A DNA stretch of 32,000 nucleotides from Holophagaceae bacterium. GTDB lineage: Bacteria > Acidobacteriota > Holophagae > Holophagales > Holophagaceae. The stretch is taken from positions 1-32,000 of the forward strand of contig DATFAX010000082.1 of assembly GCA_035254125.1 (NCBI GenBank). Reading direction: 5' to 3'. The position numbers and the translations under genes are program-made. Below are positions 17,105 through 17,397 of the stretch, one piece after another. The first letter of the stretch is position 1. Every line of letters begins with the position of its first letter. The notes below the pieces were generated by a model. It searched no databases. It was not told where the DNA came from and saw nothing but the letters and a program-made list of their open reading frames with translations.

Positions 17105-17275
17105 TGGCGGAGAGAGAGGGATTCCCTCCAGGGCCACCCCTTCGGGGCGTCCCTTCCGGCCGGCTGGCCGCTGCCCACGGCGGTTCGTCCGAAGACGAAC
17201 CGGCTCGGCCGCTCGCGCGGCCTCACCTCCGCCTACCTGGGCGCGGCTCCGCATTCGAATCCCTCTCTCTCCGCC
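17105..17275 (-). ncRNA. candidate structured RNA, tRNA-Ser-linked element copy 2 (unclassified)
   Basis: 171 nt on the same strand as tRNA-Ser(CGA). It is close to copy 1, with differences confined to compensatory or wobble-compatible positions. The terminal helix GGCGGAGAGAGAGGGAT/ATCCCTCTCTCTCCGCC is perfect. Confidence 0.55.
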
Positions 17276-17280
17276 TATGA

Positions 17281-17306
17281 GAACGCCCACCTTGCGGCGG
17301 GCGTTC
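17281..17306 (-). other. hairpin between tRNA-Ser(CGA) and element copy 2 (homologous to the 8182-8203 terminator stem)
   Basis: Minus-strand sequence is GAACGCCCGCC-GCAA-GGTGGGCGTTC, with the same stem and loop as at the other tRNA-Ser locus but no U tract. Confidence 0.5.
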
Positions 17307-17309
17307 CGG

Positions 17310-17397
17310 TGGCGGAGAGAGAGGGATTCGAACCCCCGGTGAGTTGCCCCACGCTTGATTTCGAGTCAAGTGCCTTCAACCACTCGGCCATCTCTCC
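17310..17397 (-). tRNA. tRNA-Ser (anticodon CGA), CCA encoded
   Basis: Hand fold of the reverse complement. Acceptor GGAGAGA/TCTCTCC. Anticodon stem CTTGA/TCAAG with loop CTCGAAA. A long variable arm is present. T loop TTCGAAT. Discriminator G followed by CCA. Confidence 0.9.

Follow-up and report, generated by a model that had tools for sequence, protein, structure and literature searches.

We analysed a 32,000-nt stretch of DNA from a Holophagaceae bacterium (Acidobacteriota, class Holophagae; GenBank assembly GCA_035254125.1, contig DATFAX010000082.1, positions 1 to 32,000 of the forward strand), referred to here as the window. It carries two tRNA-Ser genes, called by ARAGORN and Rfam, and each is followed on its own strand by a hairpin and then by a unit of ∼170 nt. 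The whole units lie at 8216-8384 on the plus strand (locus 1) and at 17105-17275 on the minus strand (locus 2). Both loci have the same plan: behind the hairpin comes a 5′ arm that is antisense to the 3′ end of the adjacent tRNA, then a branched core of ∼130 nt, and finally a 3′ arm that copies the last ∼20 nt of the tRNA and ends in CCA. The features of the two loci, in the order of transcription, are as follows.

Locus 1
8085-8175, plus strand: tRNA-Ser(GGA) (ARAGORN, Rfam)
8179-8206, plus strand: hairpin, first copy, AAAACGCCCGCC-GCAA-GGCGGGCGUUUU (sequence, repeat search)
8216-8237, plus strand: 5′ arm, antisense to the tRNA 3′ end at 20 of 22 positions; of the two remaining positions, one forms a G·U pair
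8238-8364, plus strand: structured core with 91% identity to that of locus 2; loops GCGA, GUGA, and GUA
8365-8384, plus strand: 3′ arm, the last 20 nt of the tRNA including CCA, 20/20
8388-8415, plus strand: hairpin, second copy, identical to the first and inside an 82-nt direct repeat
8425-8450, plus strand: third antisense arm, standing alone and complementary to the tRNA end at 25 of 26 positions, which opens a partial extra unit

Locus 2
17310-17397, minus strand: tRNA-Ser(CGA) (ARAGORN; Rfam tRNA, 62.2 bits); the arms take its last 20 nt (17310-17329) as their template
17282-17305, minus strand: hairpin a, AACGCCCGCC-GCAA-GGUGGGCGUU, identified from the sequence, with a short broken U-run only
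17254-17275, minus strand: 5′ arm, antisense to the tRNA 3′ end, 22/22
17125-17253, minus strand: structured core, a long stem with two hairpins (GCGA and UUCG loops) and a third (GAA loop), from folding and covariation
17105-17124, minus strand: 3′ arm, the last 20 nt of the tRNA including CCA, 20/20
17078-17100 (about), minus strand: hairpin b, GCGCCCGC-GAAA-GCGGGCGU, identified from the sequence and different from hairpin a

At locus 2, two inverted repeats are 100% complementary: the 5′ arm and the tRNA 3′ end over 22 nt (17254-17275 and 17311-17332), and the two arms of the unit, which make up its terminal helix, over 19 nt (17106-17124 and 17257-17275). Locus 1 contains a direct repeat of 82 nt (8156-8237 and 8365-8446, 99% identical) that spans the tRNA tail, the entire hairpin, and the antisense arm. 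Chance alone falls far short of explaining repeats of 20-22 nt at distances within 300 nt. A sequence-only reading of this DNA had already described the sense and antisense copies of the tRNA end, and the matches it gave for both arms were recovered exactly. It had counted three differences between the two tRNA tails; we found two in the last 20 nt (GAATCCC[C/T]C[A/T]CTCTCCGCCA). The shared layout that it reported is correct as regards the order of the elements. The second hairpin, in contrast, is an exact copy of the first at locus 1 and a different one at locus 2, where hairpin b is similar to the hairpin directly 3′ of tRNA-Ser(CGA) in L005, a close relative without the unit. Hairpin a was not called by our terminator scan and is probably a leaky terminator or a processing hairpin. 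The insert of 185-205 nt has no conserved reading frame.

Occurrence of the unit behind tRNA-Ser genes

Homologues of TadA and DUF2238 assign the window to an uncultured Holophagaceae metagenome-assembled genome. Its DUF2238 protein is 100% identical to an NCBI TPA protein encoded on a 33.6-kb contig, and an exact look-up of its CysK returned no record. Relatives were reached through flanking-protein anchors and then with two models derived from the units, a hidden Markov model and a covariance model; the covariance model was searched against ∼0.88 Mb of related DNA. We found 11 full units on 8 Holophagae contigs, present singly or in tandem arrays of 2-3 with a partial unit added, and two remnants. 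All full units lie directly 3′ of tRNA-Ser(CGA), of tRNA-Ser(GGA), or of a preceding unit, with a spacing of 31-40 nt. Both remnants are also 3′ of tRNA-Ser, and no copy was found elsewhere in this DNA, which supports the coupling to the tRNA; copies away from any tRNA would, according to the sequence-only reading, have refuted it. The occupied loci are listed here by contig.

Window contig, tRNA-Ser(GGA) and tRNA-Ser(CGA): one unit per locus
L007, tRNA-Ser(CGA): one unit and the beginning of a second
L024, tRNA-Ser(CGA): two tandem units and a partial one
L035, tRNA-Ser(CGA): three tandem units and a partial one
L091, tRNA-Ser(GGA): one unit
L092, tRNA-Ser(GGA): one unit, its hairpin 3 expanded by 65 nt
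L093, tRNA-Ser(GGA): one unit with an inverted core
L006, 16313-16433: remnant, 3′ half only, separated from the tRNA by a 1.5-kb low-GC insertion
L047: remnant, antisense arm and ∼28 nt of core only

Two pattern scans of the viral contigs of IMG/VR gave no match to the unit, and a metagenome scan with the pattern CGTGGGCAGCNGCCAGCCGGCNGGA gave none either. The exact pattern CCCAGGTAGNCGGAGGTGAGG, a motif that varies in L007, had only four chance matches, in coding DNA, among 185,579 species genomes. The tRNA-Ser(CGA) gene of L005 is a clean empty site. The tRNA-Ser(GGA) locus, on the other hand, is filled in four genomes, whose DUF2238 proteins are 80-100% identical. Three of these four copies share a G:C pair at a position that is C:G in L092 and in both full CGA copies. 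Since the GGA locus is orthologous in the four genomes and most of its copies carry this locus-specific pair, the occupied loci are old and the two units of the window are not recent duplicates, an origin that would have weakened the argument drawn from their differing arms. On another Holophagae contig (L031, 779-1019), tRNA-Ser(CGA) and tRNA-Ser(GGA) are arranged in tandem, 59 nt apart, a layout that could permit exchange between the ends of both tRNA-Ser genes.

The genes neighbouring the different loci include those for a CN hydrolase, DUF2238, TadA, and a methyltransferase. Downstream of the unit there is a gene for DUF2238 or for a 132-aa membrane protein in the window, a convergent gene in L007, and an AT-rich promoter region in L024 and L035. 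The association with a co-oriented membrane-protein gene, which the sequence-only reading had counted as part of the layout, is thus a matter of local synteny, and we rejected a role as regulator of the downstream membrane-protein gene, since this gene varies between loci. A type III antitoxin (ToxI-like) was discarded on the same ground.

Evidence for a structured RNA

The two window units are predicted to share one fold, a terminal helix of 17-19 bp enclosing a three-branched core, with minimum free energies (MFE) of -120.3 kcal/mol at locus 2 and -113.4 kcal/mol at locus 1 and stability z-scores of -8.5 and -8.2, respectively, compared with 200 shuffled sequences. RNAalifold, applied to eight units, predicted 44 pairs, 14 of them with compensatory changes. 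When all 11 units were used, 94.5% of the cells were paired as against 81.8% in shuffled alignments, a value that none of 500 shuffles reached, and 16 of the 44 pairs were altered on both sides. The covariation score was 0.334 compared with 0.133 after shuffling, and slid controls were only 32-50% paired. As the core helices contain 24 G·U and only 2 A·C combinations, the strand that folds is the tRNA-sense strand. The loop of hairpin 2 occurs as GCGA, GGGA, or GAGA, and that of hairpin 3 as GUGA, UUCG, or CUUG; in L092 a structured expansion of ∼65 nt (3745-3812) replaces the hairpin-3 tetraloop, which marks this loop as a tolerated variable site.

No Rfam family matched the core, either at the gathering score or at E ≤ 10, and matches of the region to microRNA, small nucleolar RNA, and plastid families merely reflect the palindrome or the tRNA. 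The units represent a previously undescribed family of structured non-coding RNAs of ∼170 nt in some uncultured Holophagae, which adds to the Acidobacteriota a well-supported, three-branched RNA from outside Rfam.

A protein-coding reading was rejected, because the AUG-initiated, arginine-rich frame present in the clade-A units is lost in L024 and L035 and because the indels are not multiples of three. In the window, this frame (16604-17290, minus strand; 8238-8345, plus strand) starts at an AUG within GAAUGCGG, and at locus 2 it continues in frame into the gene for the 132-aa membrane protein, the whole being listed as a 228-aa open reading frame; we take the frame to be probably spurious. 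A parallel is the 'protamine-like' tpr frame annotated within E. coli rttR. We also considered that the core could derive from an antisense tRNA-Ser, for which an alignment by eye gave ∼50% identity and was unconvincing.

Concerted evolution of the arms and the tRNA gene end

Why do the arms match the adjacent tRNA? To address this, the module formed by the tail and the hairpin was compared over 55 nt between the copy behind the tRNA and the copy behind the unit, with the following identities.

Window locus 1 (W1): 55/55
L091: 55/55
L092: 53/55
L007: 52/55
L093: 43/55 ungapped, ∼50/55 when a 1-nt loop indel is allowed
Window locus 2 (W2): 37/55; the two hairpins differ

The direct repeat of tail and hairpin is 55-82 nt long. 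Between genomes, only 8-15 positions of its 35-nt hairpin part match in most pairs, and lineage-specific hairpin variants, such as CCCACC/GGTGGG in L093, are common to both copies within a locus. It is because this repeat is homogenised locus by locus, while diverging between genomes, that the arms would equal the tRNA: concerted evolution, through gene conversion or unequal crossing-over, appears to recopy the selected tRNA tail into the unit. The co-variation between arms and tRNA would then mainly reflect homogenisation at the DNA level and not a finely tuned RNA interaction. Among the three mechanisms suggested by the sequence-only reading, gene conversion at tRNA-Ser genes fits best, as the tRNA-tracking repeat continues past the arm and across the downstream hairpin. 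Its argument against a mobile element with fixed terminal repeats is borne out as well, the arms being derived from the adjacent tRNA and varying with it. The loci provide a clean case in which concerted evolution of a tRNA gene end and nearby repeats can mimic functional co-variation.

The match between arms and tRNA has limits. In the window, L091, and L092 the 3′ arm equals the tRNA tail at 20 of 20 positions; the arms of L007 (18/20) and L006 each differ from their own tRNA at two. The 5′ arm of L091 contains three disruptive mismatches, and the inner units of the L024 and L035 arrays have a diverged 26-nt tail, GAATCCCGATGCCCGTTCATCCACCA, in which the CCA end is kept. The statement that each element follows its own tRNA therefore holds in the window and fails in part elsewhere, and the arms are not always equal to the adjacent tRNA. 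Arrays close with a partial unit made of the antisense arm and 15-28 nt of core (window, 8425-8468; L007, 9597-9640; L024, 6045-6090; L035, 5599-5645; L047, 8992-9035). Behind the terminator of a tRNA-Ser(CGA) gene on L043 (about 1990-2015) there is a T-arm-like antisense segment, GAGGGGATTCGAGCCCC, similar to the solo arm at 8425-8450 and possibly a decayed antisense arm without a core.

The inverted core of L093 was also considered as an inverton: one of the 11 copies is inverted, on a single contig, and neither a recombinase nor a promoter-like site was seen there. The same organism has damage at both of its loci, the GGA copy being inverted (L093) and the CGA copy truncated (L006), which is consistent with the loss of a shared, orientation-dependent function.

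Relation to RtT RNAs and possible functions

Known RNAs with a comparable position are RtT, which is the closest, sX4, and the 3′ external transcribed spacers (3′ETS) of tRNA transcripts. RtT has so far been limited to enterobacteria and, according to Rfam annotation, Pasteurellaceae, and the E. coli rtT RNA has been loosely linked to the stringent response. In E. coli MG1655 (L094, covering 1285800-1287900; units at 911-1695 of this segment), one RtT unit lies between tyrT and tyrV and three follow tyrV; a search with the Rfam family RF00391 found four copies in this tyrTV region. Each unit ends in AATCCTTCCCCCACCACCA, the last 19 nt of tRNA-Tyr. In the closing helix of the RF00391 consensus, GGGGAAGG pairs with CCUUCCCC of the tail copy, and for the 10-nt GGGGAAGGAU present in each E. 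coli unit both tail copies, the upstream and the downstream one, are possible pairing partners.

The Holophagae units resemble RtT in several respects. Both lie directly behind a tRNA gene, on the same strand and (in the Holophagae, probably) in the same transcription unit, and both form units of ∼170-180 nt that are single, as at window locus 2, or tandem with a fractional last copy. In both, the unit ends with the last ∼19-20 nt of the tRNA including CCA, the copy begins within the T loop, and the closing helix, 17-19 bp long in the window, is made by the tail copy together with a complementary segment upstream of it. The ambiguity of the arm, which can pair with the upstream or the downstream tail, is shared too. 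On the other side, there is no detectable homology in sequence or structure, and the tRNA is tRNA-Ser in Acidobacteriota as opposed to tRNA-Tyr in Gammaproteobacteria. The Holophagae antisense arm comprises 22-26 nt instead of about 8-10 nt and directly follows a GC-rich hairpin, so that a long palindrome with the tRNA end results; the Holophagae core is GC-rich, three-branched, and strongly covarying. In the search that recovers the four E. coli copies, RF00391 had no match in the window at its gathering score, nor at E ≤ 10 in 17000-17420, and because of this failure we regard the Holophagae family as built like RtT yet not a member of it. RtT is described as an RNA released from a tRNA-operon transcript and has been implicated in responses to amino-acid limitation, its mode of action being unknown (PMC4986893; bioRxiv 10.1101/2024.07.17.603846). 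An unrelated family with the same plan, in a distant phylum and at another tRNA, suggests a recurrent solution and not an accident: a structured RNA that borrows the 3′ end and the terminator of a tRNA and is closed by a segment antisense to this end. It also provides another system, besides RtT, for testing what such tRNA-operon passengers do.

The Xanthomonas small RNA sX4 (RF02223) gave a sub-threshold match at 17266-17409 (minus strand; 41 bits compared with a gathering score of 70), whose score is driven by the tRNA part. Like the Holophagae loci, sX4 combines a tRNA-Ser with a hairpin behind it, and its tRNA 3′ CCCCCC forms a helix with a GGGGGG farther downstream; sX4 lacks the ∼130-nt core and the second copy of the tRNA tail. 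Because the sX4 consensus pairs the tRNA-Ser 3′ end with a segment across the hairpin, it suggests that trailers antisense to the tail may exist behind tRNA-Ser in Proteobacteria as well. In the case of 3′ETS RNAs, such as E. coli 3′ETS-leuZ, a functional RNA is cut from the 3′ trailer of a tRNA by tRNA-processing nucleases; these RNAs are short and non-repetitive and have no copy of the tRNA tail.

The explanation we favour, and consider fairly probable, is that the unit is an RtT-like RNA which is transcribed by read-through, has its 3′ end matured like that of the tRNA, and has arms homogenised with the tRNA gene. No promoter-like site was found on the sense strand before the units, and the terminators there are weak; with the short U-runs of the hairpins, this makes read-through from the tRNA promoter the most likely source of the transcript. 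As the unit ends in the tail and hairpin of the tRNA, its 3′ end would be formed by the termination and 3′-trimming machinery of the tRNA itself. The 5′ arm would then close the molecule through the 17-19-bp helix and yield a stable processed RNA. The unit may have originated from a partial duplication of the 3′ end of the tRNA gene, and local gene conversion or unequal crossing-over between direct and inverted copies would keep recopying the selected tRNA sequence; the same recombination would account for the variation in copy number and for the inversion in L093.

Several observations weigh against this explanation. About 27 further tRNA-Ser(CGA) loci in Holophagae lack the unit, and so do Holophaga foetida and Mesoterricola silvestris; at the tadA-linked locus, no unit was found in the cultured Holophaga foetida, Mesoterricola sediminis, and M. 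silvestris. Given these absences the unit must be patchily distributed and dispensable, which would fit a selfish or mobile repeat too. Only ∼5 lineages contribute independently to the covariation, and the alignment of 11 rows had been fitted to the model. In L093 (3727-3894) the core lies inverted between its arms and nonetheless reaches 98.6 bits when scored on the minus strand. The arrays stop at a nearly fixed point, around CCCAGG|TAG in the core, despite unrelated flanking DNA, an end that simple unequal crossing-over does not predict. Finally, the 5′ arm of the first unit matches the upstream tRNA better than its own 3′ arm, which hints at a role in cis beyond the closing helix.

This last point leads to the idea of a switch acting in cis on tRNA-Ser maturation, which takes up the competition for the tRNA 3′ end that the sequence-only reading had offered as one explanation. 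In a precursor that reads through the hairpin, the 5′ arm would start from the free GCC of the tRNA end and invade the acceptor and T stems, thereby sequestering the tRNA 3′ end; once transcribed, the unit's own 3′ arm would reclaim the 5′ arm and release the tRNA, and the core could tune this choice. In energy predictions for five of five arrays, the 5′ arm of the first unit binds the end of the upstream tRNA more strongly than it binds its own 3′ arm, and the effect is most extreme in the first unit of L035 (-50.7 versus -21.5 kcal/mol), whose arm is complementary to the tRNA at 22 of 22 positions. At window locus 2 the predicted values are -51.5 and -46.3 kcal/mol, respectively, and MFE predictions for precursors prefer the pairing of tRNA tail and 5′ arm over the modular fold by 4-24 kcal/mol. 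Solo antisense arms 3′ of the distal hairpin are retained between orthologous loci (window 8425-8450 and L093) while the adjoining DNA is not, and a similar pairing, between a tRNA-Ser 3′ end and a segment farther downstream, is part of the sX4 consensus. However, nearest-neighbour energies leave out the tertiary structure and modifications of the tRNA, the 5′ arm of L091 carries its three disruptive mismatches, and most relatives have no antisense arm behind the same tRNA. Near-perfect short-range palindromes could, moreover, be created and maintained without any function by template-switch (quasi-palindrome) correction. We regard the switch as unlikely, and we give the same low credence to the broader proposal of a cis-acting device that couples tRNA-Ser maturation to terminator read-through, in which the 5′ arm would capture the acceptor and T strand at the 3′ end of the newly made tRNA (22-26 bp nucleated on the free GCC) and the core or the later 3′ arm would decide on its release, or of a related minihelix decoy or substrate. 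Either of these, if true, would be a new bacterial way to control or exploit the 3′ end of a tRNA.

Another view sees the unit as a small non-autonomous DNA module that targets tRNA-Ser 3′ ends, with the tail copies as att-type or target duplications and the conserved fold allowing an enzyme whose gene lies elsewhere to mobilise it as single-stranded DNA or RNA. Compared with the empty site of L005, window locus 2 contains an insertion of ∼205 nt flanked by a 20-22-nt tail repeat, and the L005-type hairpin is displaced to its far side. Two different isoacceptor genes are filled in one genome, the distribution is patchy with copy numbers from 0 to 3 plus a partial unit, the right end of the arrays is nearly fixed despite differing flanks, the L093 core is inverted, and tRNA-Ser(CGA) serves as a hot spot for islands in Holophagaceae. 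As in att-site duplications at tRNA genes, the direct tail repeat begins in the T loop, and relatives include both empty and filled sites; unlike those, the insert is only 185-205 nt long, non-coding, and structured, lacks an integrase, carries an inverted tail copy in addition, and occupies loci that are orthologous across four genomes. No copy occurs away from tRNA-Ser in the ∼0.88 Mb or in the IMG/VR contigs, and the gene tables show no integrase, transposase, or reverse transcriptase gene beside any copy. The orthology of the GGA locus, mostly with its locus-specific compensatory pair, argues against recent hopping, and the asymmetry between G·U and A·C together with the RNA-type tetraloops argues for selection on RNA. 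Taken together, a mobile module seems improbable to us. More specific candidates of this kind were rejected: a MITE or IS-derived repeat, as copies in the ∼0.88 Mb searched are found only behind tRNA-Ser and their arms vary with the tRNA; an integrase-type island, as an insert of this size contains no recombinase gene; and a retron msr-msd RNA, as the flanking genes encode no reverse transcriptase domain at any locus.

Least probable, and in our opinion rather remote, is a minihelix mimic of tRNA-Ser that would serve RNase P, the CCA-adding enzyme, seryl-tRNA synthetase (SerRS), or a tRNA-targeting enzyme as substrate or decoy: apart from the 5′ GGC, the terminal helix reads as the acceptor stem of tRNA-Ser stacked on its T stem with G73-CCA (5′ arm, GGC, GGAGAGA of the acceptor 5′ strand, and GAGGG of the T-stem 5′ strand; 3′ arm, CCCUC, UCUCUCC, and GCCA) and the terminal CCA is kept in all units, even in the diverged inner ones of L024 and L035, but the GGC is predicted to pair with the GCC of GCCA and to leave no free NCCA, the T loop is absent, the helix has an A·G mismatch in L007 and three mismatches in L091, and in L024 and L035 it is bulged, has discriminator A, and has lost its likeness to tRNA-Ser. 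In tmRNA and in modules of the mascRNA/MALAT1 type, paired 5′ and 3′ ends form an acceptor-like helix with a CCA terminus, and such ends could be set by tRNA enzymes. The Holophagae unit differs from tmRNA in having no tag reading frame, T loop, or free NCCA. A tmRNA or other tRNA-like RNA was rejected: ARAGORN finds only the two tRNAs in the window, only the final A is left unpaired in the predicted helix, and the T loop is lacking.

Other DNA is also found at tRNA-Ser(CGA) genes of these bacteria. At the tadA-linked gene, L006 has a 1.5-kb low-GC insert (14841-16312) that truncates the element, Holophaga foetida (L095, 10872-20456) has genes for HTH_17, Fic-like, N6-methylase, and ResIII proteins, and Mesoterricola silvestris (L099, 12319-16933) has genes for HTH, M78 peptidase, and transposase proteins. 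Directly 3′ of tRNA-Ser(CGA) in L005 (about 12400-13310), three imperfect palindromes of ∼65 nt (GCCTAAC...GTTAGGC/GTTAGAG) alternate with short low-GC frames in a way that resembles integron cassettes and their attC sites, and a fragment of the same palindrome motif occurs in L006 at about 14960-14990.

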